64,000 bases of DNA from an uncultured Polaribacter sp. (GCA_964397915.1 CAYNLA010000001.1:7542-71541), one strand, 5' to 3'. Shown: positions 9,107 through 63,223, counted from the first letter of the stretch. Notes: generated by a model from the sequence alone, not told the origin. Program-made: numbers and translations.

Positions 9107-10540
9107 TTATGATAATGTGAGTCTTTTCTGTAAATCCTCCACATAAGTTCTGAAGCGCTTGTCTGTTTCCTTCAGATTATTTACCGTTCTGCAAGCATGC
9201 AAGACTGTCGCATGGTCTTTATTACCACATTGTTGGCCAATTGATGCAAGGCTGTTCTTGGTCAATTGTTTTGAGAAATACATAGACAACTGACGCGCTT
9301 GTACGATTTCTCTTTTTCGAGTTTTACTCTTCAACAACTCAAGAGGCATATCAAAGTAATCGCAAACGACTTTTTGAATAAAGTCAATTGAAATCTCTCT
9401 AGTCGTGCTCTTAACGAATTTATCGACCATTGACTTTACTAGGTCCATGGTGATTTCTTTTCTATTTAAGCTACTTTGGGCCAAAATAGAGATAAGGGCA
9501 CCTTCGAGCTCTCTAATGTTGGAATTGATGGCATAAGCGATGTATTCTATGATCTCTTGATCCATTTCAATACCATCGTTATACAGCTTCTTAACCAAGA
9601 TTGCAACGCGAGTTTCTAAATCCGGTTTCTGTAAATCAGCGCTCAATCCCCATTTAAAACGGCTTAACAAACGTTGCTCCATACCTTGTAGCTCCACGGG
9701 AGCACGATCCGAGGTTAGAATAATTTGATTGCCATTTTGATGGAGGTGGTTGAAAATCTCAAAGAACACATCTTGAGTTTTTTCTTTACCTGAGAAACTC
9801 TGAACATCATCGATAATGAGCACATCAATCATTTGATAGAAATGCACAAAATCATTTTTGGTGTTGTTCCGTATGCTGTCAATAAATTGTTGTGTGAATT
9901 TCTCAGCACTAACGTACAAAACGGTCTTTTCAGGGTAGTTGTCCTTTATTTCAACACCAATGGCATGAGCCAAATGGGTCTTTCCTAGACCTACACCACC
10001 ATACAACATCAAAGGATTGAATGAGGTGCCTCCTGGATTCTTAGATACCGCAAAACCCGCACTACGCGCCAATCTGTTGCAATCACCCTCGATAAAATTA
10101 TCGAAGTTGTAACTTGGATTTAGCTGAGAATCGATGTTAAGCTTTTGAAGACCGGGTATAACGAAAGGATTTTTAATGCTCTTCTCGTTTCCAATCTTCA
10201 TTGGCATGTTAACACTTTGGGGATTGATCTTCTTACGACCAGCACTTGGGAGCTTCATCGTAGGAGGTGTAGCGTTGTCGTAAGCATTCTCTAAGACAAT
10301 GCTATATACCAATTTTGCGTTCGTGCCTAACGATTTAGTAATCGCTGATCTAAGTAGTTGAATGTAGTTCTCTTCGAGGTATTCATAAAAGAACTTAGAA
10401 GGTACTTGAACAGTAAGTACAGCTCCCTGAATTTTTAGTGGTTTGATTGGCTCAAACCATGTTGCAAAACATTGTTCATCTACATTGTCATTAATGAATT
10501 GGAGTGTATCATTCCAAACGGCATTAACGCTTTTATCCAT
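9107..10540 (-). CDS. dnaA: chromosomal replication initiator DnaA
   Basis: AAA+ Walker A GGVGLGKTHL, Walker B IDDVQ, C-terminal DNA-binding helix KDHATVLHA. ATG at 10540 (MDKSVNAVWN) preferred over the TTG at 10546. Confidence 0.97.
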   Translation of the reverse strand: MDKSVNAVWNDTLQFINDNVDEQCFATWFEPIKPLKIQGAVLTVQVPSKFFYEYLEENYIQLLRSAITKSLGTNAKLVYSIVLENAYDNATPPTMKLPSAGRKKINPQSVNMPMKIGNEKSIKNPFVIPGLQKLNIDSQLNPSYNFDNFIEGDCNRLARSAGFAVSKNPGGTSFNPLMLYGGVGLGKTHLAHAIGVEIKDNYPEKTVLYVSAEKFTQQFIDSIRNNTKNDFVHFYQMIDVLIIDDVQSFSGKEKTQDVFFEIFNHLHQNGNQIILTSDRAPVELQGMEQRLLSRFKWGLSADLQKPDLETRVAILVKKLYNDGIEMDQEIIEYIAYAINSNIRELEGALISILAQSSLNRKEITMDLVKSMVDKFVKSTTREISIDFIQKVVCDYFDMPLELLKSKTRKREIVQARQLSMYFSKQLTKNSLASIGQQCGNKDHATVLHACRTVNNLKETDKRFRTYVEDLQKRLTLS

Positions 10541-10546
10541 GGTCAA

Positions 10547-10878
10547 AAAATCTCTTATCGGCGGCTGTTCAAACCTCCGTCAGTGTACAGTTAATATAAA
10601 ATGTCTGGGGCGGCAATTTTGAGGTGAGTGTGACCTCATTGTCTTGCTTTACAAATGTGTTTATAAAATCCCAATCAAAAAAATTTTTATGGGGTTGTGT
10701 TAATAAAAAGTTTTGTTTAAGGGGTTGTATAATCATCTGTTAATCAATGATTTGAGTATTCGGCCAAAAAAAATAAGTATAAATTACTGCTATGGCGCTG
10801 CCTTGTGCATAAATAGTAGAGTTTGAGCCTTTTGGGTTGTGGAATTCATCCGAAGGAAAGTTCTAAATTGAAGGCCCA
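10547..10878. promoter_or_regulatory. unusually long intergenic region between divergent dnaA and thioesterase; dnaA promoter and possible DnaA-box/oriC-related elements
   Basis: 332 bp. It has two A/T runs, one 8/9 DnaA-box match TGTGCATAA (10804-10812), and GGGGTTGT at 10691 and 10721 plus GGGTTGT at 10834. Confidence 0.3.
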
Positions 10879-28981: not shown

Positions 28982-29866
28982 GTGGAAAGCAGGTATTCAA
29001 TAAAAGATTTAGAGCAAATAAGTGGTATCAAGGCGCATACATTGCGTGCTTGGGAGCAACGCCATAAGCTTATTAACCCGAAAAGAACGAGTACCAACAT
29101 TCGTTTTTATGGGGATGACGATTTACGTACCGTCCTGAATACGTCAGTGCTCCTGGACGCGGGGTATAAAATCGGTCAAATAGCTAAACTCAGTAGCTCT
29201 GAGCTCAGTGCTAAGGCCCTGGAGGAATCTCCTTATACAGGCGCCTATACTTATGAACTCAACGAACTGAAGTTGTCTACCTTAAACTTTGACTTACCTC
29301 GTTTTGAAGAGGTGATGAGTCATTGTGTTTCTAAGTTTGGTGTCCACAAGACCTTTCAAGAGATTATTGGGGATTATATCCAGGAGTTGGGCAAATTGTG
29401 GCTTGCGGGGAACGTAAGTATATCACAAGAGCACTTTATGTCTTCGCTCATTCGTCAAAAATTGTTCTCGGCTATCGACTCGCTACCAAGTGTATCCGTC
29501 CCAAAATCTGGAAGCTATGCACTGTTCTTACCTGCAAATGAACTGCATGAACTTGGATTGCTATATCTAACTTACGTTTTAAAGGAAAGGGGAGAGCACG
29601 TCTATTATTTAGGGCAAAGTCTTCCTAAAGAGTATTTGGAGGATCTTTTGAATTATAAAAACGTTACTCATCTAATCTCAGCCTTCACAACCAATCCAGA
29701 TGTTGAACAATTGGATGACTATCTTGTAGAACTTGACGATATGGTCGAAGGAAAAGACGTTCAAGTTCTGCTTACTGGCTATCTATTTTCTCAGTTTCAG
29801 CCCAAATCAGACTATCGCAATATTGAGATTTTCCAGTCTTTAAAGGACTTGAGCGCTAGTATTTAA
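28982..29866 (+). CDS. MerR-family regulator with CarH/LitR-type adenosylcobalamin-binding photoreceptor module
   Basis: N-terminal MerR HTH YSIKDLEQISGIKAHTLRAWEQRHKL. C-terminal signatures W-x9-E-H (W140LAGNVSISQE150H151, W codon at 29399-29401) and E-x-H-x-x-G (ELH189ELG, H codon at 29546-29548). GTG start. Confidence 0.8.
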   Translation: MESRYSIKDLEQISGIKAHTLRAWEQRHKLINPKRTSTNIRFYGDDDLRTVLNTSVLLDAGYKIGQIAKLSSSELSAKALEESPYTGAYTYELNELKLSTLNFDLPRFEEVMSHCVSKFGVHKTFQEIIGDYIQELGKLWLAGNVSISQEHFMSSLIRQKLFSAIDSLPSVSVPKSGSYALFLPANELHELGLLYLTYVLKERGEHVYYLGQSLPKEYLEDLLNYKNVTHLISAFTTNPDVEQLDDYLVELDDMVEGKDVQVLLTGYLFSQFQPKSDYRNIEIFQSLKDLSASI

Positions 29867-29899
29867 TGATTTTATCGTTTGTTTAATAATTTTTTAAAA

Positions 29900-29921
29900 A
29901 AGTTTGACAGAATGTTCAAAC
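29900..29921 (+). promoter_or_regulatory. candidate CarH/LitR operator upstream of the ECF sigma gene
   Basis: AAGTTTGACAG (29900-29910) fits the 11-bp CarH repeat pattern nAnnTnnACAn as I recall it. The adjacent AATGTTCAAAC (29911-29921) misses by one base. The pair also contains GTTTGA-N8-TCAAAC. Confidence 0.35.
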
Positions 29922-29964
29922 ACTTTGTTTAACTTTAAACTCCGAAACGTTAAACAAACTAATT

Positions 29965-30471
29965 ATGTCTACCGCAGAATTCGGTCAACTCATTGATAGA
30001 GAGTATGAGTTTTTAAATCAGCTCGCTATGAAATTGACAAAGCAACGAGATGATGCTGAGGATCTCATACAGGATACCTACTACAAGGCATTAAAGAATA
30101 AAGACAAGTTTGCTACTGGAACGAATTTGAAAGGGTGGTTGTATACCATCATGAAAAATACGTTCATCAACAATTACCGTAGAAAGCGTAATCAAAATAC
30201 GTTTGTTGACGAAACGGATTCTCAATTCTTCTTGAATTCTAAAGAATCTAGTAAAAGCACTCATACCGAAGCCAATGTGGATAATGAGTACATCATGAAT
30301 CAAATCGGTACCATTGAAAAGCATTACACCGAGGCATTTTTCATGCATTACGAAGGCTATAAGTATGAGGAAATCGCAGAGCACTTCGGTATTCCTTTAG
30401 GTACGGTCAAATCAAGAATATTCTTGGCTAGACAGAAAATGATGGAAAAATTAGGCGACCTTCGCTATTAG
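29965..30471 (+). CDS. ECF-type RNA polymerase sigma-70 factor
   Basis: Region 2 DAEDLIQDTYYKALKNKDKF...LKGWLYTIMKNTFINNYRRK and region 4 YKYEEIAEHFGIPLGTVKSRIFLARQKM; 168 aa. No adjacent anti-sigma ORF. Confidence 0.9.
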   Translation: MSTAEFGQLIDREYEFLNQLAMKLTKQRDDAEDLIQDTYYKALKNKDKFATGTNLKGWLYTIMKNTFINNYRRKRNQNTFVDETDSQFFLNSKESSKSTHTEANVDNEYIMNQIGTIEKHYTEAFFMHYEGYKYEEIAEHFGIPLGTVKSRIFLARQKMMEKLGDLRY

Positions 30472-30494
30472 TCCTACCACCTAAACGCCCCACA

Positions 30495-31970
30495 ATGAAA
30501 TCAGTTATAGTAATCGGCTCTGGATTTGCCGGTTTGAGTTCCGCATCCTTTCTTGCCAAGTCTGGATACGACGTCACCTTGCTTGAAAAAAATGATCAAT
30601 TAGGCGGTCGTGCCCGTGTTTGGGAAACCAAAGGCTACAAATTCGATATGGGACCTAGTTGGTATTGGATGCCAGATGTATTTGAGCGCTATTTCGAAGC
30701 GTTTGGATATGAGGTTCCCGAACTATATGAATTGATAAGGCTAAACCCTTCCTATCGAGTGGTCTTTGGACCAGATGAATTCGAAGATCAAAGCGCGAAT
30801 ATGAAAGAGTTAGAGGCTATGTTTGAACGCCTCGACCCAGGATCTAGCAAACGGCTTCAAAAGTTTTTAAAGGAAGCTGCCTATAAGTACGAAGTTGGAA
30901 TTAAGGACTTAGTACATAAGCCATCGAGATCCTTACTCGAGTTTGCTGATTTTAGAATTCTAAAGGGCTTATTTCAATTGGACTTACTAAAAGACATGCG
31001 TAAGCACGTTGCTGAAGTAAGTACCCACCCGAAGTTGAAAGCTATAATGGAGTTCCCAGTATTATTCTTGGGAGCTTTACCTCAAAATACTCCAGCCCTA
31101 TACAGCTTGATGAATTATGCCGATATGTCTTTAGGTACTTGGTATCCAAAGGGCGGAATGAATAAAATCATTGAAGCAATGGTAAAAGTCGCGAAGGAGC
31201 AAGGGGTTAAATTCCGCACCAATGCTGAAGTAACGGGTTTCAAGTACTCGGGAGATAGAATAGTAGGGGTTACAACTAAGAAAGGTGCCTTTAGCGCAGA
31301 TATAGTTGTAGCTGGCGCCGATTATCATCACGTAGATCAGAACGTATCTGCGGAAGACAAGCGTGAATATTCTGAAAAATATTGGGAGAAGAGAAAAATG
31401 GCTCCTTCATCGTTGCTGTTTTACCTTGGAATAAAGGGGGAAGTGCCGAACGTCTTGCACCACAATTTGTTCTTCGACCATGAATTGGATCAGCATGCAG
31501 CGGAACTCTATACAACGCCACAGTGGCCGACGAAGCCATTGTTCTATGCGAGCGCTCCTTCAAAAACAGATAAATCAATCGCACCTGAAGGCTGTGAGAA
31601 TATGTTTCTTTTGATGCCTACTGCTCCTGGTTTAGGAGGTGATACAGAGGAGGTTAGAGAGAAATATTACAACATTATGATGGATCGACTTGAACAATTT
31701 ACGGGTTCAAGCATTAGAGATAGAGTAGAGGTTAAACGCAGCTTTGCATTCTCCGATTTCAAATCAGAGTACAACAGCTTTAAAGGAAATGCTTACGGGT
31801 TAGCCAATACAATTGACCAAACGGCAATTCTAAAACCGAGACTAAAGAGCAAAAAAGTACGTAACCTTTATTTCGCAGGACAACTTACAACACCGGGACC
31901 TGGTGTACCGCCAACCTTAATTAGTGGGGAAGTTGTAAGCAAAGAAATAGCTAAAGACTTCAAACTATAA
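30495..31970 (+). CDS. crtI: phytoene desaturase
   Basis: FAD motif VIVIGSGFAGLSSASFLAKSGYDVTLLEKNDQLGGRA and C-terminal carotenoid-desaturase motif YFAGQLTTPGPGVP. Confidence 0.93.
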   Translation: MKSVIVIGSGFAGLSSASFLAKSGYDVTLLEKNDQLGGRARVWETKGYKFDMGPSWYWMPDVFERYFEAFGYEVPELYELIRLNPSYRVVFGPDEFEDQSANMKELEAMFERLDPGSSKRLQKFLKEAAYKYEVGIKDLVHKPSRSLLEFADFRILKGLFQLDLLKDMRKHVAEVSTHPKLKAIMEFPVLFLGALPQNTPALYSLMNYADMSLGTWYPKGGMNKIIEAMVKVAKEQGVKFRTNAEVTGFKYSGDRIVGVTTKKGAFSADIVVAGADYHHVDQNVSAEDKREYSEKYWEKRKMAPSSLLFYLGIKGEVPNVLHHNLFFDHELDQHAAELYTTPQWPTKPLFYASAPSKTDKSIAPEGCENMFLLMPTAPGLGGDTEEVREKYYNIMMDRLEQFTGSSIRDRVEVKRSFAFSDFKSEYNSFKGNAYGLANTIDQTAILKPRLKSKKVRNLYFAGQLTTPGPGVPPTLISGEVVSKEIAKDFKL

Positions 31971-32806
31971 TGAAAGCACTATTTGACAGCATTAGCATTC
32001 GGTCGAGCCGAATGGTTACGAAGGCTTATAGTACTTCGTTCTCTCTTGGAATCTTAGGTTTAGATCGTAAATACCACGATCCCATCTATGCCATTTATGG
32101 CTTTGTGCGATTTGCAGATGAGATTGTCGACTCCTTCGAGGGATATGCCCAAAAAGAATTATTGGAAGATTTCTGGAAGGATACCTACAAGGCATTAGAC
32201 CTGAAAATAAGTTTGAATCCTATTCTAAACAGTTTTCAGCAAGTCGTTCATGCCTACAGTATTGATCGTGATTTAATTGAGACTTTTTTAAAGTCGATGG
32301 AAATGGACCTCTACAAGCATGAATATGATGAAGCAGGCTACAAGGCTTACATACTAGGTAGTGCGGAAGTCGTTGGTCTAATGTGCTTAAAGGTTTTTGT
32401 CGATGGCAATGAGGAAAAATATCAATTGCTCAAGAAACCAGCCATGCAATTGGGGTCAGCTTTCCAAAAGATAAATTTCCTTCGTGATTTAAATGCGGAT
32501 TACCACAGCCTCGGACGAACTTATTTTCCGGGTGTAGACTTGAATAACTTTAACGAGGAGGTAAAGGCTGAAATTGAAGCGGATATTGAAATAGACTTTA
32601 ATGCCGGATATGAAGGCATCAAGCAGCTACCCAAAGGCGCTCGTTTCGGTGTTTACATAGCTTACGTTTACTACTACAGTTTATTTAAGAAGATTGAAAA
32701 GACTCATTGTGACCTCATTTTGAATGAGCGGGTGAGAATCAGTAACAAAAGAAAATACGGCTTATTCTTGAGCTCTTATTTTAGACATACCATTAATTGG
32801 ATTTGA
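31970..32806 (+). CDS. crtB: phytoene synthase
   Basis: SQS/PSY motifs YAIYGFVRFADEIVD and FQKINFLRDLNADY. Confidence 0.92.
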   Translation: MKALFDSISIRSSRMVTKAYSTSFSLGILGLDRKYHDPIYAIYGFVRFADEIVDSFEGYAQKELLEDFWKDTYKALDLKISLNPILNSFQQVVHAYSIDRDLIETFLKSMEMDLYKHEYDEAGYKAYILGSAEVVGLMCLKVFVDGNEEKYQLLKKPAMQLGSAFQKINFLRDLNADYHSLGRTYFPGVDLNNFNEEVKAEIEADIEIDFNAGYEGIKQLPKGARFGVYIAYVYYYSLFKKIEKTHCDLILNERVRISNKRKYGLFLSSYFRHTINWI

Positions 32807-32808
32807 CA

Positions 32809-33339
32809 ATGCTTGAACAAGTTATCCTGGTCGATGAGCAAGACAATGCTCTAGGACTGATGGAGAAAATGGAAGCGCATCGCTTGGCGAAACTACACCG
32901 TGCATTCTCTGTTTTCGCCATGAATGACAAAAATGAAATTCTTTTACAACGTCGTGCTTTGCATAAATACCACAGCGGTGGACTTTGGACGAACACATGT
33001 TGTTCGCATCCACGAGACGGTGAGACCGTAGAGCAGGCCGCTAAAAGACGTTTAATGGAGGAGATGGGATTCACTTGTGAAGTGAAACGAATTTTCTCTT
33101 TTATATACAAGGCAGAATTGGATAACGACCTAACAGAGCATGAATTAGATCACGTTCTGATCGCTCGTTACAATGAAGATCCGAATATTAATCCCGATGA
33201 AGTCGATAGTTTTGATTGGAAATCTGTAGAGTGGGTTGCAAATGACATGAAGTCAAACCCTGATAGCTATACAGTTTGGTTTAAAATTATCTATGACCGA
33301 TTCTTAACCTATTGGATGAATGAGAATCACGGTCTCTAG
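32809..33339 (+). CDS. idi: isopentenyl-diphosphate delta-isomerase, type 1 (Nudix)
   Basis: HRAFSVF...LLQRRALHKYHSGGLWTNTCCSHP...AAKRRLMEEMG. ATG at 32809 preferred over the TTG at 32797. Confidence 0.9.
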   Translation: MLEQVILVDEQDNALGLMEKMEAHRLAKLHRAFSVFAMNDKNEILLQRRALHKYHSGGLWTNTCCSHPRDGETVEQAAKRRLMEEMGFTCEVKRIFSFIYKAELDNDLTEHELDHVLIARYNEDPNINPDEVDSFDWKSVEWVANDMKSNPDSYTVWFKIIYDRFLTYWMNENHGL

Positions 33340-33730
33340 AAAAGCGCACTTCAATGCAGCGCACAGACTTCATAACCCAGAATTGAGTTCATCGGAGAAT
33401 CTCGATGTCTTTGGAAAATGCAATAATGAGTATTTCCATGGCCATAATTACGAGTTGGTGGTGAGTGTAACTGGCGAAGTAGATCCTAAAACTGGATACC
33501 TAATCGATATGAAGGTTTTAAGGGATCACATTAAAAACGAGGTAGAAGAGTATCTCGACCACAAGAATTTGAATATTCAGGTAGCTGAGTTCAAAACTTT
33601 GAATCCAACGGCAGAGCACATTGCTTATGTCATCTGGAACCGATTAAGAGTCGTACTTGAAAAGGATTTAGAACTTTCAGTAAGACTTTATGAAACCCCA
33701 AGAAACTTTGTGGATTACAGCGGTTTATAA
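33320..33730 (+). CDS. 6-pyruvoyl-tetrahydropterin synthase family protein (PTPS/QueD superfamily)
   Basis: AHFNAAHRL and GKC34NNE37YFH40GH42NYEL active-site block. Cys is 5 residues and Glu 2 residues before HGH. 136 aa. Confidence 0.85.
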
Positions 33731-33741
33731 AAAATTCAATC

Positions 33742-34413
33742 ATGACTACACACGATAATAAATACACCCCCGAAGATCTAGAGAACCTCGTAGAGGCACA
33801 TCTTGGAACCTCAGTTGACACCCCACTCAGAGGGGATGCCTTTGCGAAGTCTGATGATGAAAAGATTGCTCTTATTGCCGCTAAGTTCCATGATATCATG
33901 GAAATTTTGGGTTTAGATTTAACCGATGATAGCCTTCAAGGCACTCCGCTACGAGTTGCTAAAATGTATGTAAAGGAGGCCTTTTCAGGGCTTAATCCAG
34001 ATAATAAGCCTGAAATGAAGTTATTCGACAATAAGTTTAGGTATACCGAGATGCTCATTGAGAAAGACATCAAAGTCCATTCACACTGCGAGCATCACTT
34101 TGTACCCATTATCGGCAAATGCCACGTAGCGTACATTCCAAATGGAAAAGTGGTTGGCTTGAGTAAGCTAAATAGAATAGTGCGTCATTACGCTAAACGA
34201 CCACAAGTTCAAGAGCGCTTGACAAGACAAATTGCTGAAGCACTAATGGATGGGTTAAATACGCAACATGTCGCTGTCTACCTCGAAGCGGACCATATGT
34301 GTGTCAAAACACGTGGGATAGAGGATGATCATAGTTCTACGGTGACAATGGCCTTCCACGGTAACTTCGAAAAGGAAATAAATAAGCGTGCTTTTCTAGA
34401 GTCCTTTAGATAA
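33742..34413 (+). CDS. folE: GTP cyclohydrolase I
   Basis: [52 protein letters not shown]. Confidence 0.95.
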
Positions 34414-35714
34414 TGCAAGAAGTTTCGGTCTTTTGGTTTCGTCGGGACCTCCGGATAGACGATAATGCAGGTCTGTGGAAAGCCCTGAAATCTGGGCAGC
34501 CAGTCTTACCCATTTTTATCTTTGATCGAAACATCCTAGATAAACTCGAGGAACGTAGTGATGCTAGGGTATCCTTCATTCATCAAAGCATCACGGCCAT
34601 AAACAGCCAATTAAAGGAATACGGCTCAGCTCTTCATGTCTTCTATAGTACACCAATGGAGGTAATGCAAGACCTAAGTCAGAAGTATGAGGTTAAATCT
34701 GTTTTTTTAAATCGAGATTACGAGCCTTACGCGAAAGAACGAGATCAGCAAGTATATGACTTTTGGAAAGCTCGGGGAGTAGATGTTATAGGGGCAAAAG
34801 ATCATGTGATATTCGAAAAAGACGAGGTCGTGAAAGGTGATGGCACCCCTTACTTAGTCTTTAGTCCATATGGCCGCGCTTGGAGGAAAATTCTAAAACC
34901 TTACCACTATAAATCGTACCCTACTGAAAAGTATTTTGGCAAATTCTTCAGATGTGAATTTGGCTCAATACCGTCATTAGAGGATATGGGTTTTGAAAAG
35001 ACGGATATTCCAATTCCATCTTTACAGATTGACTCGAATATTATTAAAACCTACGATTCGACTAGAAATTTCCCAGCGAAGAAAAACGGAACTACCCGTT
35101 TGGGAATACATTTACGCTTCGGCACATTGTCCGTAAGGAAATTATTAGCCCACGGTATTCATTATAATGAGACCTTCGTAAATGAGCTAATCTGGAGAGA
35201 TTTCTATCAAATGGCCTTATACAATTTTCCAAATAGCCGCGAAAAAGCAATAAAACCTAAGTATGATTTTATTCGTTGGGAAAACAATGAAGATCATTTT
35301 AAGGCTTGGTGTAAAGGAAAAACGGGATATCCCATTGTGGACGCGGGAATGCGTGAATTGAACCAAACGGGATACATGCATAATAGAGTTCGCATGATTG
35401 TAGCAAGTTTCTTAACTAAACACCTGTTGATTGACTGGAGATGGGGAGAGGCTTATTTTGCTCAAAAACTTTTGGATTTCGACCTGGCCTCGAATGTAGG
35501 AGGGTGGCAATGGGCAAGCGGCAGTGGACTCGATGCTGCTCCATACTTTAGAGTGTTCAACCCTACTGCCCAAATGGAGAAGTTTGACAAGGACTTGAAA
35601 TACATCAAGAAATGGGTACCGGAGTTAGAAACGCATCTTTACCCACAACCAATAGTTGAACACAAATGGGCGAGAGAACGTTGTCTTGAGCGCTTCAAAG
35701 AGGCGCTACAATAA
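34413..35714 (+). CDS. cryptochrome/photolyase family protein (class I CPD photolyase or Cry-DASH-like)
   Basis: N-terminus FWFRRDLRIDDN. FAD domain TGYPIVDAGMRELNQTGYMHNRVRMIVASFL...WQWASGSGLDAAPYFRVFNP. Confidence 0.9.
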   Translation: MQEVSVFWFRRDLRIDDNAGLWKALKSGQPVLPIFIFDRNILDKLEERSDARVSFIHQSITAINSQLKEYGSALHVFYSTPMEVMQDLSQKYEVKSVFLNRDYEPYAKERDQQVYDFWKARGVDVIGAKDHVIFEKDEVVKGDGTPYLVFSPYGRAWRKILKPYHYKSYPTEKYFGKFFRCEFGSIPSLEDMGFEKTDIPIPSLQIDSNIIKTYDSTRNFPAKKNGTTRLGIHLRFGTLSVRKLLAHGIHYNETFVNELIWRDFYQMALYNFPNSREKAIKPKYDFIRWENNEDHFKAWCKGKTGYPIVDAGMRELNQTGYMHNRVRMIVASFLTKHLLIDWRWGEAYFAQKLLDFDLASNVGGWQWASGSGLDAAPYFRVFNPTAQMEKFDKDLKYIKKWVPELETHLYPQPIVEHKWARERCLERFKEALQ

Positions 35715-35717: not shown

Positions 35718-37142
35718 TTAGACCTTTTCAGTCTCGGGGGAGTAACCAAAGAGTTGTTTCTCTTTAATTACCGTATCTACATACTTTGGTAGACATTCTT
35801 CCCAACCATCTTCGCCACAACGTATTTTACGGAGCACCTCTCTTGAAAAAATATTGGTTATGTCTTGGTCAAACTCTTCAATATCCAATATTCTATTATG
35901 GAAGATGAGATAATCAATAATTGGTCGGAAGCGTGGATGAACCTCTGCATCTTCCTTGCGTGTAATCTTTGAAGTTTGGTCTTCTTGGAAAGGATAAACA
36001 AGAATTTTAAGGTCCTTTGAGAAGATTCTACCGAATGCCTCTAAAATACCGCCTTGTAAACCACGATAGTATTTTTCATTAAAGAGCTCAGATAGATTAT
36101 TAACACCCATAACTAACCCTTGGCGCTTCTTAGAGAATCGTCCGAAGTAGTCAACGAGCTTATAATATTCTTGGTAGTTTGATATGAGCACAGTCTGCCC
36201 AAGGCTACATAGAATTTCAGCACGATCTAGGAAATCTTGTTCATCGATTTCACCCTCGGCCAAGAGGTTATTCAAAGTAATCTCCCAAAGGACTACTGTT
36301 TTGTCTGGATTTACCTTTCTATCGTTCGAAAATACTTCGTATCCGCGCTTAATCATGTCCATATTGACACGGGTAACCGGACGAAAAGATCCTCTCATGG
36401 CTAGAATATGCTTTTTGTAAAGCAATTCTGCTGGCAACAAATTGTTTCCTTCTGGACCGAAAATCACTGCGTCCGTATACCCATTTTTGATCAATTGCAA
36501 TGACATCAAACGATTGTCAACCTGCTCAAAATCAGGTCCTGAGAAGTTGATTAGATCAATCTCAATAGCTGCATGGTCAATATTGTCGTAGAGACTTCGT
36601 AGCAATTCCTTACAATCTGTAAATAGATTGTAAGCACCATAAATAAGATTGGTTCCTAATCTACCTACAGTTTCTTGTTGATGCTTCGCTTCGTTCTCAT
36701 GCAACCTGAAGTGTAAAAAGATATCATTCGTTGCTTTGTCAGGAGCGGTTTGAAAACGAATACCCATCCAGCCATGGCCCTTGAAGGTTTTCGCAAAATT
36801 GATCGTTGCTACAGTATTCGCGTATGCGAAATACGTTTTCTCAGGATGAATTTCCCGGTCTAAACGCTTTTCAATCAAACTGTATTCGTGTTTGAGCATC
36901 TTTCGAACGCGGCTTTCCGTAACATATCTGCGATCTTCTTCGATGCCATAAATGTCATCAGAGAAGGCCTTGTCATAGGCGCTCATTGCCTTTGCGATAG
37001 TTCCCGAAGCTGCTCCAGCTCTAAAGAATTCACGAACTGTTTCCTGCCCAGCACCAATTTCCGCAAACGTACCGTAGATGTCGGGGTTTAGGTTAATTTT
37101 AAGTGCCTTTTGGGCGGTAGTAAGAATGACCCTGTCCTTCAT
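35718..37142 (-). CDS. conserved cytoplasmic protein of unknown function (474 aa)
   Basis: Long clean ORF with no signal peptide or TM segment. N-terminal GTFAEIGAGQETVREFF block. I cannot assign a family. Confidence 0.6.
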   Translation of the reverse strand: MKDRVILTTAQKALKINLNPDIYGTFAEIGAGQETVREFFRAGAASGTIAKAMSAYDKAFSDDIYGIEEDRRYVTESRVRKMLKHEYSLIEKRLDREIHPEKTYFAYANTVATINFAKTFKGHGWMGIRFQTAPDKATNDIFLHFRLHENEAKHQQETVGRLGTNLIYGAYNLFTDCKELLRSLYDNIDHAAIEIDLINFSGPDFEQVDNRLMSLQLIKNGYTDAVIFGPEGNNLLPAELLYKKHILAMRGSFRPVTRVNMDMIKRGYEVFSNDRKVNPDKTVVLWEITLNNLLAEGEIDEQDFLDRAEILCSLGQTVLISNYQEYYKLVDYFGRFSKKRQGLVMGVNNLSELFNEKYYRGLQGGILEAFGRIFSKDLKILVYPFQEDQTSKITRKEDAEVHPRFRPIIDYLIFHNRILDIEEFDQDITNIFSREVLRKIRCGEDGWEECLPKYVDTVIKEKQLFGYSPETEKV

Positions 37143-51901: not shown

Positions 51902-54900
51902 TTAGGCCGATTCCGCAGATTTACGTCCACGCTTCATCGTAGTACTGGTTTTACTGTAGTTATCCTTTTCGCGAGCCATGGTATCCTCATATCGTGGATC
52001 TGGAACCATGGCGACTTTGTAGAGCGCCGAAGCTTCGATACTGAAGAAGCCAAATTCTTCCACAACGCGACCCTGTACACGATAAATACCTTTGCCACGA
52101 AACGGAAATTGTGCAGCGATGTTTGGGAAATGCACGCTGTCCAAGAATTCACCCTCTTGATCAACGAACGTGGCAAAATTCATTCGATCGCCTTTTATTG
52201 TTTTTGTGTCTTTCACCGTCACTAAATACCCGTACGAAATAACGAAGTGCCCCAGTTTATCAGGTAATTCCCTGGCCATAGTACCGTTCTCCAAAGGTTC
52301 ATCGGCCAATTCAAACGGGTCACACAGTGGAAATCCTAGGAGCTCAATTTGATCGAAGGCTTCTTCGAGACTACTTTGTTGAAGTATTGGAATCTTATAA
52401 TCGTGCGGTTGTTGATTGCCCTTAAATAAACTAGGTGGTGCTGCTATAACTTCTTTCGTATTACGGCCTCGAAGCATGTGATGGGCTTCCCAAAGTAAGG
52501 TTTGTTTTGACTTTCCAGTAAAGCGTAGGGCACCGATACGTATTAGTAATGAAATCTGCTCTATCCCAACAGGAACGCGGTCTATGAAATCTGCTAAATC
52601 CATAAAGGGTCCTCCCTCCTCGCGTTCACGCCCTATGTATACACCTATTTTTTCATCTAAACTTCGCAACAATACAAAGCCCAGGTAAATAGTGTTCCCT
52701 TGAATCACTGTAGGATAATCACCATACTGTACACAGGGTGCTTCGATCTGACCTCCATTGCGGCGAGCTTCGTGAACATAGAACTCTGTTCTGTAGAACC
52801 CGCCGAAATTATTTATCACCGCAACCATGTATTCCAAGGGATAATGTGCCTTCAAATAGAGGCTTTGATAGCTTTCTACGGCATACGATGCACTATGACC
52901 TTTAGCAAAAGCATAGCCTGCAAAACTTTCTATTTGACGCCAAATCTCACGACTCAGTTCTTCACTATATCCTCGCTCCCTACAGTTTTTAAAATATTGA
53001 TTTTCAACATTTTGAAACTCTCTTCTTGAACGAAATTTCCCTGACATTCCTCGACGCAATACATCGGCTTCTCCCAGCGAAAGCCCTGCGAAATAATGGG
53101 CGACTTTGATGACATCTTCTTGGTAGACCATCACTCCAAAGGTGTCCGGCATAATCTCAAGCATCACAGGGTGTGCATCCTTTCTACGCTCTGGATCAGT
53201 AAACCGCAGTATATACTCACGCATCATCCCACTATTACTTACTCCTGGGCGAATAATGGAACTGGCCGCGACCAGTCCTAAATAGGTATCGACCTTGAGT
53301 TTTTTAAGTAGCATTCTCATCGCCGGCGATTCCACATAGAAACATCCCATGGCCAAGCCATTTCGCAGTAAGTTTTTAATGGCCTCATCTTCTTTAAACC
53401 GCCGTAAGTCACGTATATCTATAAATGGACGATCCGGCTTGTTCTTTGCCACGATGGCTAGGGTGTCCTGAATTTTAGAAAGACCTCGCTGGCTCAGGAT
53501 ATCAAATTTATGCAGGCCAATATCTTCAGCGATGATCATATCAAACTGCACAGTTGGAAATCCTTTGGGAGGCATAAAAGTCGCGCTGTGGTAGTGCAAG
53601 CTTTGCTGTGCGATTAGTATTCCTCCTGCATGAATACTAAGGTGGCTTGGAAACCCTTGTATGTAAGTGCTATAACGAAGTACGAGATGGGATAATTGAT
53701 CGAGCGAGCCCGATGAGAAATTCCCTTTACTTAGTTTGTCTATCTCGTGCTTGGGTAAACCGAACACCTTCCCTAGTTCTCGAACCACCGATTTGTACTG
53801 AAATGTGTTGTAAGTAGCTAACAGTGAGGTATGTGGGAACCTTTTGAAGATGTACTGGGTGATATCCTCGCGATCGCGCCATGAAAAATCAAGGTCAAAA
53901 TCTGGTGGTGAGGTTCGATGCAGGTTGATAAATCGCTCGAAGTACAGGTCCAGTGCGATTGGATCAACATCCGTGATTTTAAGAAGGTAGGCGACAATGC
54001 TGTTGGCCCCGCTCCCCCGCCCCACGTAGAAATAACCACGTTTTTGAGCGTAATTCACAATATCCCAATTGATTAAGAAGTAGGACACAAAGTTCTTTTG
54101 GGCGATGAGGTCCAGTTCTTTCTCAATGCGTTCCTTGACCTTGAAGTCTGACTGTGGATAGCGGTACGGTAAGCCGTCGTAGCAAAGCTTTCTTAGAAGT
54201 TTCAGGTCCTTTTCGCGTGAACCTGAATAGGTCTGAAGATTTAGCGCGGCGTCCTCCGGTAAGGTCATTTTACAGTCCTGAAGGATTTGAGCTGCATTTC
54301 TAAGGAGTTCAGGTGCGGATGCATAGGCCTCACGAAGGGCATGATCTTCTAAATACAGGTCGTCGATGCTGCCTTGGGCTTCTTTTGATAGTTTGCTGAG
54401 CAGGGTATTTTCATCAATGGCTCGGAGCAAGCGATGCGCGTTGTGGTCCCGTTTTCCTCTGAAAGAAGCAGTTGGGAACGCGACGAGTTTGTGCTTCGCA
54501 TCTTTCCACTTTCGAAACGGTAAGGACGGAACTTCGGAGGGTGTAATGCCTATACATTCATTGTTCGCAAGATCCTTTAAGTCAATATCTGAGGAGGTTG
54601 GATAAATGATCCAAGTATTGGCAAGGGTCTTTCTATCAGGGCGCTGTGGAAATTTTACGCTGTGATGTAAATGCCAACTTAGATGGTCGTTGATTTCCCG
54701 CATCCCTTCCCAATTTCTCGCCAGCATTACATAGCATTGGCGAGTACCATTACGAAAATCAACACCTACCACAGGGCGTTTATTGGGATGATTACGCATG
54801 AGGTGCAAGACCGTCATGCACGCCGAAGTGTTGTTAATGTCTGTCAATGCCATCACAGGCCAGGGCTGGTCTTCAAAGAATTTTATCCATTCTTTAGGCG

Positions 54901-54949
54901 ACACGATTCCATAGCGCAAGCTGTAATAACTGTGCGTATTCAATAGCAT
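51902..54949 (-). CDS. dnaE2: error-prone DNA polymerase III alpha-subunit paralog (DnaE2-type)
   Basis: PHP N-terminus LNTHSYYSLRYG, Pol III alpha core (GRGSGANSIVAYLL, FDLDF) and OB domain; 1015 aa. It lies in an operon with a Y-family polymerase and an S24 repressor. Confidence 0.85.
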   Translation of the reverse strand: MLLNTHSYYSLRYGIVSPKEWIKFFEDQPWPVMALTDINNTSACMTVLHLMRNHPNKRPVVGVDFRNGTRQCYVMLARNWEGMREINDHLSWHLHHSVKFPQRPDRKTLANTWIIYPTSSDIDLKDLANNECIGITPSEVPSLPFRKWKDAKHKLVAFPTASFRGKRDHNAHRLLRAIDENTLLSKLSKEAQGSIDDLYLEDHALREAYASAPELLRNAAQILQDCKMTLPEDAALNLQTYSGSREKDLKLLRKLCYDGLPYRYPQSDFKVKERIEKELDLIAQKNFVSYFLINWDIVNYAQKRGYFYVGRGSGANSIVAYLLKITDVDPIALDLYFERFINLHRTSPPDFDLDFSWRDREDITQYIFKRFPHTSLLATYNTFQYKSVVRELGKVFGLPKHEIDKLSKGNFSSGSLDQLSHLVLRYSTYIQGFPSHLSIHAGGILIAQQSLHYHSATFMPPKGFPTVQFDMIIAEDIGLHKFDILSQRGLSKIQDTLAIVAKNKPDRPFIDIRDLRRFKEDEAIKNLLRNGLAMGCFYVESPAMRMLLKKLKVDTYLGLVAASSIIRPGVSNSGMMREYILRFTDPERRKDAHPVMLEIMPDTFGVMVYQEDVIKVAHYFAGLSLGEADVLRRGMSGKFRSRREFQNVENQYFKNCRERGYSEELSREIWRQIESFAGYAFAKGHSASYAVESYQSLYLKAHYPLEYMVAVINNFGGFYRTEFYVHEARRNGGQIEAPCVQYGDYPTVIQGNTIYLGFVLLRSLDEKIGVYIGREREEGGPFMDLADFIDRVPVGIEQISLLIRIGALRFTGKSKQTLLWEAHHMLRGRNTKEVIAAPPSLFKGNQQPHDYKIPILQQSSLEEAFDQIELLGFPLCDPFELADEPLENGTMARELPDKLGHFVISYGYLVTVKDTKTIKGDRMNFATFVDQEGEFLDSVHFPNIAAQFPFRGKGIYRVQGRVVEEFGFFSIEASALYKVAMVPDPRYEDTMAREKDNYSKTSTTMKRGRKSAESA

Positions 54950-54964
54950 TTCCCCTACCCGATT

Positions 54965-55774
54965 TTAGAATCCTAAGTCCAGTTTTCGTTGGCGTGCTTG
55001 GGTCATTCCCATGCCTTGTAAAGACAGGTGTGAATAGATCTCGTAATCATATTCCGGAACTAGACGCTCCCCTATGGGCTTCAAGAGTTCAGGACCATTA
55101 GCGCTTGGGCTTTTAATGGCTGCAGAGATGGGATACGCATTGAGTTCTTCCGAGGGGTATGGATTTAACAGGTCTGTGATTTCTGCCAGCGGAATGGATG
55201 GGTTCAACCAGATTTGCTCGTCCTCTTCTTGAAGAATTACGGGCGATCGGTGGTGATCTATGGCTGCCGTGATTTTGTTCTGAACGGTTGTAATGATGGC
55301 ATAGCTATCTATGATTTCGCCAGTATCCGGATTTACCCACGAATCGTAAATACCTGCAAAGGCAAAAGGCGCTCCATCTCTTTTGTAGACTACATAGGGT
55401 TTTGAGAGGCGTTCCTTTTGAGGTCCTTCGATAAACGCATCTGCAAGAACTAAACAGCGCTTTGAGCGAATGCTCTGACGAAATGCGGGCTTAGTCGTAA
55501 TGCCTTTTGCACCGCGATAGGCCGGATCATTCTCCGAATTGTGGTCTCCTTCAGAGCGGGCATTGAACAGATGGAACGGCTTCTTAGCCCAATACGGGGT
55601 AAAGCCGAAGCGGTAATGCTTAATGGTCCCTGGGTGCTCCTGGGTGATTACAGCGCCTAAATCACCAATGCTCGTGTTTGTATTAGGTGCATAGAGATCC
55701 GGGCGCTCTACGATAGCACTGAAGCGCTTTTCTACTGCTTTAATCTTACTGATATTGACGTATCTGCCACACAT
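54965..55774 (-). CDS. SOS response-associated peptidase (SRAP/YedK-like abasic-site processing protein)
   Basis: Catalytic N-terminus MCGRY, NARSE, HHRSPVIL; 269 aa. The C-terminus is ...QRKLDLGF. Confidence 0.88.
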   Translation of the reverse strand: MCGRYVNISKIKAVEKRFSAIVERPDLYAPNTNTSIGDLGAVITQEHPGTIKHYRFGFTPYWAKKPFHLFNARSEGDHNSENDPAYRGAKGITTKPAFRQSIRSKRCLVLADAFIEGPQKERLSKPYVVYKRDGAPFAFAGIYDSWVNPDTGEIIDSYAIITTVQNKITAAIDHHRSPVILQEEDEQIWLNPSIPLAEITDLLNPYPSEELNAYPISAAIKSPSANGPELLKPIGERLVPEYDYEIYSHLSLQGMGMTQARQRKLDLGF

Positions 55775-55803
55775 GGTACTCTTCTCTCTAAGTTAAATTC
55801 TTT

Positions 55804-57015
55804 TTACTGATGTCTGTTGGCCAATAGCGGCGGCGGTTCTCCATTGAAAGGATTGGTCCTTCCTATGGTCTTTGCGCCTAGTGAGACTGCTCGTAAAACA
55901 GAGCGATCGCCAAAGCGTTGACGAATGTGATCCATTGCACTGTAGAGTCTACTCAATTCCTCACTTTCTTCAAAGAGATTCATTTGGTAGCCACCGCCAA
56001 CCAAATGAGAACAGCGCACACCCACTAAGCGGACTAATAGCCGGCGGTCATAGAGACGCTTGAATAGTTCCTTCACCTTGGGAATGAGAATGTGGTCAGC
56101 TGCGGTATACGGAATACGCGCTTGTAGCGTATGGGTATTAAAGTCTGAATAACGGATTTTAACCGTGATGCAAGACGTGAGTTTATCGCCTCTACGCAGC
56201 TGGTAAGCCAAATTTTCCGCCATGGCTACTATGATTCCTTCGAGTTTGACCACATCAATGGTATCCTTGGCAAAGGTTCGTTCGGTAGAGATGCTCTTTC
56301 GCTCTTGATACGGTACCACAGGACTTTGATCGACACCTTGTGCTTTGTGCCAGATTACCGATCCATGTTTCCCCATCACACTTTGCATCATCTCCAAGGG
56401 CATTTCCTGAAGCGTCTGTATGCGTCGTACCCCAAGATTTCGAAGCGTTTGGTACGTCTTCTCTCCCACCATAGGTATTTTTCGCACTGATAAGGGCGCC
56501 AAAAACGGGCGTTCTAAGCCTTTTTGGATGTAAATCTTATTATTGGGTTTCGCCTCGCCGGTTGCGACTTTACTAACGGTTTTATTTCCAGAAAGGCCGA
56601 AACTGATCGGCAGTCCGGTTTCTCGAATGACCTTATCTCGAAGTTCACTAGCAAACTTGAAGTTGCCGAAGAATCGATCCATGCCTGTGAGATCCACATA
56701 GAACTCATCCACAGAGGTTTTCTCGTAGACCGGTACATCCTCTTTGATCACATCTGTGACCAGGTTGGAGTACTTGCTGTAGTTGGCCGAATTTCCACGA
56801 ATCACAATGGCTTCAGGACAAAGGTCTTTTGCCATTCGCATGGGCATGGCAGAGTGCACACCGAATTTTCGTGTTTCATAGCTGCACGCAGCCACTACTC
56901 CACGATCACCAGTTCCTCCAATAATAATAGGTTTTCCCATGAGACGCGTATCCATAAGACGCTCTACAGAAACAAAGAATGTATCTAAATCCAGATGAAG
57001 GATGGAACGGTCCAT
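55804..57015 (-). CDS. dinB: Y-family DNA polymerase IV with intact catalytic residues
   Basis: ILHLDLDTFFVSVE, AACSYETRKFGV and SVDEFYVDLT carry the catalytic D/E triad. ATG at 57015 (MDRSILHLD) preferred; the longer ORF starts at 57048. Confidence 0.88.
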   Translation of the reverse strand: MDRSILHLDLDTFFVSVERLMDTRLMGKPIIIGGTGDRGVVAACSYETRKFGVHSAMPMRMAKDLCPEAIVIRGNSANYSKYSNLVTDVIKEDVPVYEKTSVDEFYVDLTGMDRFFGNFKFASELRDKVIRETGLPISFGLSGNKTVSKVATGEAKPNNKIYIQKGLERPFLAPLSVRKIPMVGEKTYQTLRNLGVRRIQTLQEMPLEMMQSVMGKHGSVIWHKAQGVDQSPVVPYQERKSISTERTFAKDTIDVVKLEGIIVAMAENLAYQLRRGDKLTSCITVKIRYSDFNTHTLQARIPYTAADHILIPKVKELFKRLYDRRLLVRLVGVRCSHLVGGGYQMNLFEESEELSRLYSAMDHIRQRFGDRSVLRAVSLGAKTIGRTNPFNGEPPPLLANRHQ

Positions 57016-57051
57016 GAGTGGGTATTTATGAGTTTTAGGGGTGTTCACAGC

Positions 57052-57083
57052 CTATTTGAGCGGCCCTTGGGCCGCTCAAATAG
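57052..57083 (-). promoter_or_regulatory. perfect 14-bp-stem hairpin between the repressor gene and dinB (attenuator/terminator or operator)
   Basis: CTATTTGAGCGGCC(57052-57065)-CTTG-GGCCGCTCAAATAG(57070-57083). It begins 22 nt after the repressor stop. There is no U-tract on the minus strand. Confidence 0.5.
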
Positions 57084-57105
57084 CAATGCTTGTATGTATT
57101 TTTTT

Positions 57106-57888
57106 CTAGTTGTCCTTGAGCGTACTCATCTCCTTGCGCAGGTCTGCGACCATATGCATAAGCTGAGACATCTCTTGATTTGTACCCGCTGCCGGAAGCT
57201 CGAAACAAGTGTAGCCAACGGCTTTCCAAGCTTCTACAAGTCGATCAACAGGTACGGTATACGGTGCAAATTGCGGGTTATCGGATTTGAGCATTAGCTC
57301 ACCAACGTGGAGGTTGTTAATTACACGCTTGTACACAACACCTTCATCCTTAGTAATGAGTACATAACAATCGTCATTACGGATGGATTTCCAGTCTTGA
57401 ACATATTCCGTGATTACATACGAACCCGGTTTAATGGGAAGCATGCTCTCTCCACGAATTTGGAAAACGCGGTAGGTACGGTCTTGTGGAAGTTCAGGGA
57501 ACGGCATAGAGAAACGTGGCAACGCGCCTATGTAATCTGCATCTCCATACCCCGCTAAATATCCGGCAGAGGCCTTTACTGGAACCAAGGTTCCCAACTC
57601 TTTCTCATCTGTACCGTCTACAACCACAGGAAGAATGCGCAACTGTGCACCACTTACATCTGCTTTTGGAATAGATCCGCCGCCGGAAAGATCTTTGTTT
57701 ACGAAATCATCTAAGCGAACCTGGAAATACGCTGCAAGATGTTGCAAGGTGTGCAACCTAGGTTCCGCCCTACCTTCTTCATAGGCACCGATCATGGCAC
57801 GCTTTACTCCAATCTTTACCGCTAACTGCTCCTGCGTCAGCGCTTCTTTCTTTCGAAGAAACTTCAAATTGTTCTTTACGTAGTTCAT
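57106..57888 (-). CDS. CI-like HTH (XRE) + S24 peptidase repressor, non-canonical LexA type
   Basis: HTH LTQEQLAVKIGVKRAMIGAYEEG, candidate cleavage site ASAGY, catalytic Ser in RGESMLP and Lys in VVYKRV. ATG at 57888 (MNYVKNNL) preferred over 57915. Confidence 0.82.
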   Translation of the reverse strand: MNYVKNNLKFLRKKEALTQEQLAVKIGVKRAMIGAYEEGRAEPRLHTLQHLAAYFQVRLDDFVNKDLSGGGSIPKADVSGAQLRILPVVVDGTDEKELGTLVPVKASAGYLAGYGDADYIGALPRFSMPFPELPQDRTYRVFQIRGESMLPIKPGSYVITEYVQDWKSIRNDDCYVLITKDEGVVYKRVINNLHVGELMLKSDNPQFAPYTVPVDRLVEAWKAVGYTCFELPAAGTNQEMSQLMHMVADLRKEMSTLKDN

Positions 57889-57948
57889 ACAGCGTATCTT
57901 TAAAAACCAAGGCACAGCATGCCCTGTTGATTTACAATGCTAATTTAG

Positions 57949-63056: not shown

Positions 63057-63058
63057 AA

Positions 63059-63091
63059 CAATTAATTAAAACAGTTTAATCAATTGTTTTT
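63059..63091 (+). terminator. AT-rich hairpin plus T-run after the PhoD-like gene
   Basis: CAATT-A-ATTAAA(63059-63070)/TTTAAT-C-AATTG(63075-63086) with one mismatch, followed by TTTTT. Confidence 0.35.
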
Positions 63092-63223
63092 CAATAGATT
63101 GAATATATTGTAATGAAGCAAGACTTTACTCAATATCTTATCCCTTAAAAGCACCGGAATCTTAAGCGAAATTTCATTTGAATTCTATTTTTGAAGTGTT
63201 TCAATTGTATTACATTTGTAACT

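Follow-up and report, generated by a model that had tools for sequence, protein, structure and literature searches.

Which signal governs a run of carotenoid, pterin and photolyase genes that, in an uncultured Polaribacter sp., stands behind a MerR-type regulator gene (carH) and a gene for an extracytoplasmic function (ECF) sigma factor, and which of these two regulators passes the signal on? The eight co-directional genes lie in a 64,000-nt stretch of DNA (GCA_964397915.1, CAYNLA010000001.1:7542-71541; hereafter the window), and an initial annotation made from the sequence alone had taken them as a candidate light regulon headed by a photoreceptor of the CarH/LitR type that depends on vitamin B12. 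To our knowledge, B12-based photoreceptors have been worked out mechanistically only in a few bacteria, namely Thermus, Bacillus, myxobacteria and Streptomyces. In the surface ocean and in fresh water, Bacteroidota count among the major heterotrophs. Our analysis finds a light regulon to be the best reading of this locus, and suggests that the CarH-type regulator probably represses, directly and in a light-relieved manner, one promoter of the housekeeping sigma-A type that would drive all genes from the sigma factor gene through the photolyase gene (phr).

We examined the regulator against the known features of CarH. Its N-terminus matches PF13411 (MerR_1) at 5e-16, and PF02607 (B12-binding_2) scores 25.1 bits on it at a cut-off of 23. 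CarH proteins are defined by a MerR domain with an RxWERRY recognition helix, a four-helix bundle with the motif Wx9EH and the signature D/ExHx2G-x41-SxT/V-x22-27-GG, in which Wx9EH caps the adenosyl group and the His of D/ExHx2G is the lower axial cobalt ligand, and an intact Wx9EH is the criterion that divides the adenosylcobalamin (AdoCbl) photoreceptor CarH from its B12-independent paralogue CarA (PMC9304148). The two signatures that the initial annotation had read in the regulator were found at exactly the residues it gave, W140-x9-E150-H151 and E187-L-H189-E-L-G192, and W140, E150, H151 and E187-x-H189-x-x-G192 are invariant across 27 homologues, down to 45% identity. The recognition helix reads R22-A-W24-E25-Q-R27-H28, two positions off the consensus (Q for R and H for Y), with R22, W24, E25 and R27 invariant in the same homologues. 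A family profile matched T. thermophilus CarH (5C8D) over residues 5-226 with an E-value of 8.6e-19. In addition, the AlphaFold model of the regulator (predicted local distance difference test, pLDDT, 85.5) has the predicted architecture of a MerR winged helix, a four-helix bundle bearing Wx9EH and a Rossmann-type B12-binding domain bearing ExHxxG, and its top Foldseek matches were all full-length T. thermophilus CarH structures (5C8E, 5C8D; E 2e-13), with template modelling (TM) scores of 0.74-0.76 normalised to B12-binding-domain targets. The motifs, the profile match and the predicted fold support the earlier placement of this MerR open reading frame (ORF) among the CarH/class I LitR-type B12 regulators and mark it as a divergent member of that kind, and we infer from them that the protein would bind B12 and be sensitive to light.

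The gap between carH and the sigma factor gene, which was absent from the junction list of the initial annotation, measures 98 nt (29867-29964) and holds two inverted repeats, a distal one (IR1) and a proximal one (IR2; Table 1). IR2 has the extended arms TTTGTTTAAC / GTTAAACAAA and ends 8 nt before the ATG of the sigma factor gene, and IR1 starts 46 nt upstream of the start of IR2. Thermus and Bacillus CarH bind 11-bp repeats (nnnnTnnACAn) with the conserved core TnnACA, and the characterised CarH operators consist of three or four such repeats in direct tandem, overlapping the promoter (PMC9304148). All four arms of IR1 and IR2 hold TnnACA, which is included in the half-site TTAAACA and reads TAAACA in the left arm (complementary strand) and TTGACA in the right arm of IR1. 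The exact repeat occurs once in the window, where 0.01 occurrences are expected by chance. In a regulator-seeded set of 80 loci from GTDB representatives, searched with at most one mismatch and a spacer of 16-17 nt, its density was 6.2 per kb in the intervals between carH and the next gene, compared with 0.015 per kb over the remaining 1.42 Mb, an enrichment of about 420-fold at the carH-adjacent position. Nearly all carH-sigma loci of this set carry the repeat at that position, also where the carH-sigma pair stands alone. Two copies are usual, with the distal repeat at the matching relative position in 44 related loci, and the start-to-start distances fall at 44/46, 54/55 and 63 nt, that is, in steps of about one helical turn.

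The repeat further appears to follow CarH. It stands directly 5' of crtI in loci that lack the sigma factor gene (L022, L042, L057, L063 and L071) and, in some lineages, also upstream of carH itself, and therefore goes with CarH and not with the sigma factor. In a second set of 80 metagenome loci, which was seeded with the sigma factor, independent of the first set and blind to carH, 13 of the 15 loci that have carH next to the sigma factor gene carried the repeat, as did 8 of the 38 that do not (Fisher p = 1.7e-5, phylogeny ignored). The spacer of 16-17 nt is AT-rich and varies in sequence, and is thus not a conserved hairpin loop. These data point to IR2 as the predicted operator of CarH, which probably controls transcription of the sigma factor gene.

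The promoter to be controlled would lie at the same place. The -7 box of Bacteroidetes sigma-A is TAnnTTTG, at positions -12 to -5 (PMC9723704), and a candidate box, TAACTTTA, overlaps the left arm and the spacer of IR2, with a predicted transcription start near 29942. Of 81 loci, 47 have TAnnTTTG within the proximal repeat, in three lineage-dependent registers, where shuffled sequence would give 3.6. A scan for the sigma-70-type consensus gave nothing above background, as expected for Bacteroidetes. An ECF-type promoter in this gap was considered and rejected, because the conserved DNA is symmetric, contains no conserved AAC/CGT pair at ECF spacing and is also present in loci without the sigma factor gene. 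Between IR1 and IR2 lies a further palindrome, ATGTTCAAACA (TGTT-nn-AACA; 29912-29922), which only the closest relatives (L005-L007, L011 and L012) share; it may belong to the -33 region or represent a fifth, partial pair of half-sites. Algoriphagus-type loci have a GC hairpin followed by a T-run between carH and the repeats, indicating that carH forms a unit distinct from the sigma operon in these relatives; no such hairpin terminator follows carH in the window, so some read-through from carH is possible.

How far would a transcript from this promoter extend? The ORF map bears out the eight genes where the initial annotation had placed them, and the recomputed junctions are identical with its own: +23 nt between the sigma factor gene and crtI, -1 for crtI/crtB, +2 for crtB/idi (with the idi ATG at 32809; a TTG upstream at 32797 is also open), -20 between idi and the 6-pyruvoyl-tetrahydropterin synthase (PTPS) gene, +11 between the latter and folE, and -1 for folE/phr. 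A junction scan of the window found no terminator-like site at any junction from the sigma factor gene to phr, and a convergent gene lies 3 nt downstream of phr. Owing to the tight junctions, the lack of a terminator-like site at them and this convergent gene, the genes from the sigma factor gene to phr look like one transcription unit, in agreement with the earlier claim. The gap before crtI, shorter than 30 nt in 49 of 63 related loci, leaves no room for a promoter in the window, and at the sequence level no sigma-specific crt promoter was found. In relatives without the sigma factor gene, this insert is just missing. The crt, pterin and phr genes are thus most simply explained as co-transcribed with the sigma factor gene from the CarH-controlled sigma-A promoter.

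Table 1 Predicted genes and regulatory features of the carH-sigma-crt-pterin-photolyase locus (positions counted from the first nucleotide of the window).
Feature	Position	Strand	Basis or remark
Eight co-directional genes	28982-35714	+	ORF map
carH-like regulator gene, GTG start, 294 aa	28982..29866	+	Pfam, NCBIfam, motifs, profile, predicted fold
IR1, distal degenerate repeat TGTTTAA-N16-TTTGACA	29880..29909		Sequence; 2 mismatches to consensus
IR2, proximal exact repeat TGTTTAA-N17-TTAAACA, proposed CarH operator	29926..29956		Sequence, conservation
Candidate Bacteroidetes sigma-A -7 box TAACTTTA (consensus TAnnTTTG)	29930..29937	+	Overlaps IR2 left arm and spacer
ECF (group 4) sigma factor gene, ATG start, 168 aa	29965..30471	+	Pfam, NCBIfam, family alignment
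crtI, phytoene desaturase, bifunctional CrtID type	30495..31970	+	NF058655, 725 bits (cut-off 640)
crtB, phytoene synthase	31970..32806	+	PF00494 (SQS_PSY) 2e-41; synteny with crtI conserved
idi, type 1 isopentenyl-diphosphate isomerase	32809..33339	+	NF002995, 165 bits (cut-off 127)
PTPS, animal (PTPS-II-like) type	33320..33730	+	PTPS 1e-34; C-x5-HGH
folE, GTP cyclohydrolase I	33742..34413	+	NF006824, 263 bits (cut-off 202)
phr, class I-type cyclobutane pyrimidine dimer (CPD) photolyase, last gene of the unit	34413..35714	+	PF00875 7e-43, PF03441 1e-77

Taken together, we propose the following mechanism. Expression of carH would be separate from that of the other genes. Oligomers of AdoCbl-bound CarH would occupy IR1 and IR2 in the dark and thereby cover the -7 box and the start of the transcript. 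In the light, the Co-C bond would be photolysed, the oligomer would disassemble and the promoter would be freed, giving one mRNA for the ECF sigma factor, CrtI, CrtB, Idi, PTPS, FolE and the photolyase. The sigma factor would thus be co-induced with the pigment, pterin and repair genes without being required for their transcription, and would form a second tier that switches on unlinked light-response genes elsewhere in the genome.

A number of observations weigh against this mechanism. On the protein side, PF02310 (B12-binding, Rossmann) scores 16.4 bits on the regulator, below its cut-off of 32.1, so that of the HMM check suggested in the initial annotation the MerR and B12-binding_2 domains came out above cut-off and the B12-binding domain did not. 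The best NCBIfam match, NF052513 (TransRegCarH equivalog), reaches only 85.2 bits against a cut-off of 400, and by sequence the regulator appears as a distant relative of the proteins underlying that family. Its downstream Rossmann elements are S233-A-F235 and T265-G266, not SxT/V and GG, and the residue after the Trp of Wx9EH is Leu, not the His that follows it in many CarH proteins and serves as upper ligand in light-state T. thermophilus CarH (PMC9304148). On the DNA side, TAACTTTA is imperfect, with an A in place of the final G of TAnnTTTG; a clear TTG of the -33 element is missing at the usual spacing from the -7 box of the window; and as the characterised CarH operators are direct and these are inverted, the binding geometry would have to differ, predicting a different arrangement of the DNA-binding domains on the DNA. 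Moreover, no gene for B12 uptake or adenosylation is present among the window ORFs with Pfam matches, and eight of the sigma-seeded loci carry the repeat without carH within 900 nt upstream of the sigma factor gene.

Some of these points would suit a regulator that is not a photoreceptor-repressor at all, but a cobalamin or redox sensor, or a classical MerR activator that remodels its promoter, with light having no direct part. A Rossmann half that falls under the Pfam and NCBIfam thresholds and the missing His would fit such a protein, palindromic sites are closer to classical MerR operators than to the direct repeats of CarH, and Streptomyces LitR has been described as activating litS in the light (PMC11519972). 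Against this stand the intact Wx9EH and the lower-ligand His, which on the CarH versus CarA criterion (PMC9304148) speak for AdoCbl, and the controlled genes themselves, since carotenoid synthesis and a photolyase make sense only for light. The repeats are, in addition, centred approximately at the predicted transcription start and at -47 and not between -33 and -7, and human-gut Bacteroidaceae belong to the clade of sigma factors that lack carH, which fits a loss in habitats without light; we therefore regard a regulator of this other kind as improbable. It is even less probable that the repeat is bound by another repressor, or acts at the RNA level as an element of the 5' leader, with the proximity of carH being mere synteny. 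The eight loci with a repeat and no nearby carH would be explained in this way, and the right arm does lie within the predicted 5' leader. However, the arms hold the CarH core TnnACA, the repeat is also found upstream of carH itself and is absent from the carH-less sigma clade, and two phased copies suit the four DNA-binding domains of a tetramer; for an RNA element, moreover, the unconserved spacer is an obstacle, and an Rfam scan found no RNA family in the window and hence no cobalamin riboswitch.

The remaining alternative concerns the sigma factor. The initial annotation had recognised here the LitR/LitS logic of Streptomyces coelicolor, in which LitR-AdoB12 acts as repressor of two divergent promoters, those of litR and litS, and transcription of the crt operon then depends on sigma-LitS (PMC11519972). 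In its strict form, such a cascade would have CarH control the sigma factor only, and the sigma factor would be needed for crtI-crtB-idi-PTPS-folE-phr through a sigma-specific promoter inside or just after its own gene. The combination of a B12-MerR protein, an ECF sigma factor and crt genes does mirror Streptomyces, where sigma-LitS drives the crtE promoter (PMC11519972), and carH together with the sigma factor gene forms the conserved core of the module. Six loci (L118, L120, L127, L165, L126 and L157) also have a hairpin terminator and a gap of 120-160 nt between the sigma factor gene and crtI, so that crtI must have its own promoter there; no inverted repeat precedes crtI in these loci. 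But the gap is as short as noted above in the window and in most related loci, the repeat lies directly 5' of crtI where the sigma factor gene is missing, and it overlaps a sigma-A-type -7 box and not an ECF-type AAC/CGT promoter. A search for a sigma-dependent motif shared by the longer sigma-crtI gaps found none in common, and the seeming gaps before phr in relatives proved to be small ORFs. We thus consider a strict cascade unlikely. What stands of the LitR/LitS comparison is that CarH probably controls transcription of the sigma factor gene; a sigma factor driving crt and phr is not supported here, given the short gap, the repeat before crtI in loci without the sigma factor and the housekeeping-type -7 box.

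In the preferred reading, direct repression by CarH, what is left for the sigma factor to do? It matches PF04542 (Sigma70_r2, 1e-14), PF08281 (r4_2, 4e-13) and TIGR02937 (sigma70-ECF, 89.4 bits at a cut-off of 42.9), and in the family alignment it consists of the sigma-2 and sigma-4 regions only, with no C-terminal extension. An anti-sigma gene next to an ECF sigma factor gene is usual, though not universal. Certain ECF groups have no known regulator (PMC7826278), and a link of this protein to ECF114 (P. gingivalis SigH) is speculative. ORF maps gave no anti-sigma candidate beside the sigma factor gene, in the window or in related loci, which agrees with what had been read from the sequence before. 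Lacking an anti-sigma partner, the sigma factor would be regulated through its light-dependent synthesis; in some Bacteroidales it has only carH beside it, so that its targets should be distal genes.

Metagenomes commonly contain homologues of the sigma factor, at 43-50% identity, in loci that have neither carH nor the repeat (L134, L138, L159 and about 20 further loci, with the sigma factor at about 4001-4500). These include human-gut contigs whose closest named proteins are from Phocaeicola and Bacteroidaceae. In a neighbour-joining tree, 23 repeat-less sigma factors form a pure clade nested in a Bacteroidales-type branch that also has carH-linked, repeat-bearing members. Monophyly of the repeat-linked sigma factors was accordingly rejected, as they form no clean clade and the repeat-less clade with the gut sequences nests inside the Bacteroidales-type branch. 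This pattern suggests that the sigma factor, if orthologous at this distance, was kept after loss of CarH and of the operator in dark habitats.

These observations can be extended into a broader picture for Bacteroidota, in which carH-sigma is an ancestral master light switch with a palindromic four-arm operator, CarH binds DNA in a geometry other than the direct-repeat mode solved for Thermus, the sigma factor relays the signal to a dispersed regulon, gut Bacteroidaceae have kept it for oxidative stress after CarH and the operator were lost, and Schleiferiaceae have coupled synthesis of an animal-type pterin to photorepair. We hold this picture to be possible but doubtful as a whole. If it is true, the predicted dispersed sigma regulon might contain, for example, the remaining carotenoid steps, rhodopsin and retinal genes or oxidative-stress genes.

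The structural genes fit a response to light. The NCBIfam name of the family matched by CrtI is 'CrtID bifunctional phytoene desaturase/3,4-desaturase'. Among the window ORFs with Pfam matches (a few have none), there is no lycopene cyclase, carotene hydroxylase, rhodopsin or cobalamin gene; the initial annotation was hence right to note that a cyclase and a hydroxylase are missing from the window and that the end product of the pigment pathway is undefined. In animal PTPS the active-site spacing is C-x5-HGH, and in QueD it is C-x3-HGH. The PTPS of the window has the C-x5-HGH spacing and among solved structures is far closer to the rat (1B66, 9.7e-35) and human (3I2B, 3.6e-33) enzymes than to E. 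coli QueD (3QN0, only 4e-10), and is therefore not a queuosine enzyme. As judged by homology, PTPS and FolE would make a pterin derived from 6-pyruvoyl-tetrahydropterin. A side activity has been described for some bacterial and Plasmodium PTPS paralogues; if the present enzyme shares it, it could feed folate and through it a methenyltetrahydrofolate (MTHF) antenna for the photolyase. The best solved relatives of the photolyase (1OWL, 1TEZ, 4U63 and 1DNP) are the photolyases of A. nidulans, Agrobacterium and E. coli. In Pseudomonas, phrB, folE, folM and folX are light-induced under LitR-family regulators (PMC9758184), which provides a precedent for the content of this regulon. A PTPS that seemed truncated in sister contigs was traced to the start choice of the gene caller; the ORF is intact.

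Other genes were seen next to phr. In Cytophagales (L024, L064 and L065), a conserved ORF of about 60 aa (MFSFLKSDP..., rich in Lys and Glu), which is absent from the window, lies between idi and phr, immediately 5' of the latter, and in two Flavobacteriales loci (L011 and L012) a different small ORF lies between folE and phr. Convergent with the photolyase gene, the minus strand (35718-37142) encodes a 474-aa protein that is in place in almost all Schleiferiaceae-like loci at 68-88% identity and has no Pfam, NCBIfam or PDB sequence match.

Compared with known systems, the regulator shares with CarH/class I LitR of T. thermophilus, B. megaterium and M. xanthus the MerR domain, the Wx9EH bundle, the Rossmann His of ExHxxG, the predicted fold and the adjacency to crt genes, and its operator region shares with that of B. 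megaterium CarH the four TnnACA cores, which here also overlap a candidate promoter. In contrast, it is only about 20% identical to T. thermophilus CarH and differs in SxF/TG, in the lack of a His after the Trp and in RAWEQRH. Whereas CarH operators are tandem 11-bp direct repeats, the window has two inverted pairs with arms 16-17 nt apart and, across loci, pairs 44-63 nt apart, and its promoter is of the Bacteroidetes TAnnTTTG type, with a regulon that adds an ECF sigma factor, pterin genes and a photolyase. As in S. coelicolor LitR/LitS, a crt-linked B12-MerR protein is paired with an ECF sigma factor that it appears to control. However, litR and litS are divergent in Streptomyces, whereas the genes of the window are co-directional with the sigma factor gene as first cistron of the structural operon, and sigma-LitS transcribes crt from a promoter of its own (GCATCCR-N15-CVGAAD), whereas crtI to phr appear to be co-transcribed with the sigma factor gene here. 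Class II LitR of P. putida and P. mendocina resembles the present system in the light induction of phrB together with folE, folM and folX (PMC9758184), but has no Rossmann B12 domain, works with a light-oxygen-voltage (LOV) partner, has neither carotenoid genes nor an ECF sigma factor in its regulons and relies on FolX/FolM, not PTPS. M. xanthus CarQ/CarR likewise has an ECF sigma factor taking part between light and carotenoid synthesis (PMC9304148), but CarQ is held by the membrane anti-sigma factor CarR and freed via singlet oxygen, CarF and plasmalogens, whereas in the window there is no anti-sigma factor and transcriptional control by CarH is predicted.

The mere presence of CarH in this group would not surprise a specialist; what stands out is the operator geometry and the phylum-wide carH-sigma module. 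What would be new, going by the sequence features, is a switch of the CarH type whose operator, with its four cores in palindromic order, sits on a Bacteroidetes promoter, and an ECF sigma factor without anti-sigma factor as first cistron of a photoprotection operon that Schleiferiaceae have extended by an animal-type PTPS, FolE and a photolyase. If the proposed switch is real, light responses of abundant marine bacteria would be tied to their supply of vitamin B12, which many of these bacteria are thought to scavenge, and a new operator-repressor pair would be available for optogenetics in Bacteroidota. The switch is defined well enough to be tested, with a regulator, an unusually symmetric operator sequence, a promoter and a sigma factor that would need no anti-sigma factor, and cultured carriers exist.

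The module is not confined to the window. Near-identical contigs are found in many marine metagenome assemblies, and the closest named relatives are metagenome-assembled genomes of Schleiferiaceae and Cryomorphaceae (Flavobacteriales). The regulator family comprises more than 7,000 database clusters, with at least 595 matches among GTDB species representatives. The order carH-sigma-crtI-crtB, often with idi and sometimes with phr, occurs in Cytophagales (Algoriphagus, Marivirga, Rufibacter, Fulvivirga and Cyclobacteriaceae), Vicingaceae and the Schleiferiaceae-like group. Within the 80 regulator-seeded loci, the complete set of eight genes, including PTPS, folE and phr, is restricted to Schleiferiaceae/Cryomorphaceae-like loci, one of which (L018) is without folE. 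The sigma factor gene is missing from the carH-crtI-crtB loci of Flavobacterium, Allomuricauda and Saprospiraceae. In several loci from Bacteroidales and Lentimicrobium, the carH-sigma pair with the repeat stands alone in unrelated flanks, with neither crt genes nor an anti-sigma candidate. The carH-sigma(-crtIB) module is thus widespread in Cytophagales, Flavobacteriales and some Bacteroidales, and the window is no rarity. In the literature that we searched, merR-rpoE-crtI-crtB is drawn in an Echinicola genome paper without functional comment (PMC8683446), no functional study of a Bacteroidota CarH was found, and the sole Bacteroidota case of a light response of this sort was Chryseobacterium lacus, with light-induced pigmentation of no known mechanism (PMC7064467).

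Beyond the locus, the window was scanned for further sites of the same regulon. When up to two mismatches were allowed, IR1 was joined by no more than one variant palindrome (63031-63060), which is approximately the level in shuffled sequence, and further regulon sites in the window were rejected on this ground. The variant, TGTTTCA-N16-TGAAACA, is perfect, lies about 130 nt 5' of a gene for a small HTH_3 regulator (63191-63574) and has the spacing of the carH-linked repeat, but its core is AAACA and not TnnACA; one match with two mismatches is expected by chance. A second operator upstream of dnaA (10713-10747) was likewise rejected because of its imperfect arms, the AT-rich origin region and single-arm matches at chance level.

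Two other parts of the window deserve mention. On the minus strand, 51902-57915 encodes a LexA-like repressor (HTH_3 and Peptidase_S24), a Y-family/ImuB-like polymerase (IMS), an SRAP protein and a 1015-aa DnaE2-like Pol III alpha subunit, a cassette that looks like an SOS mutagenesis module and thus a second DNA-damage system beside the photolyase. After the dnaA gene (9107-10546, minus strand) comes an AT-rich intergenic region of 332 nt (10547-10878), and cumulative GC skew is lowest at about 8-10 kb; the window therefore probably contains the chromosomal replication origin.

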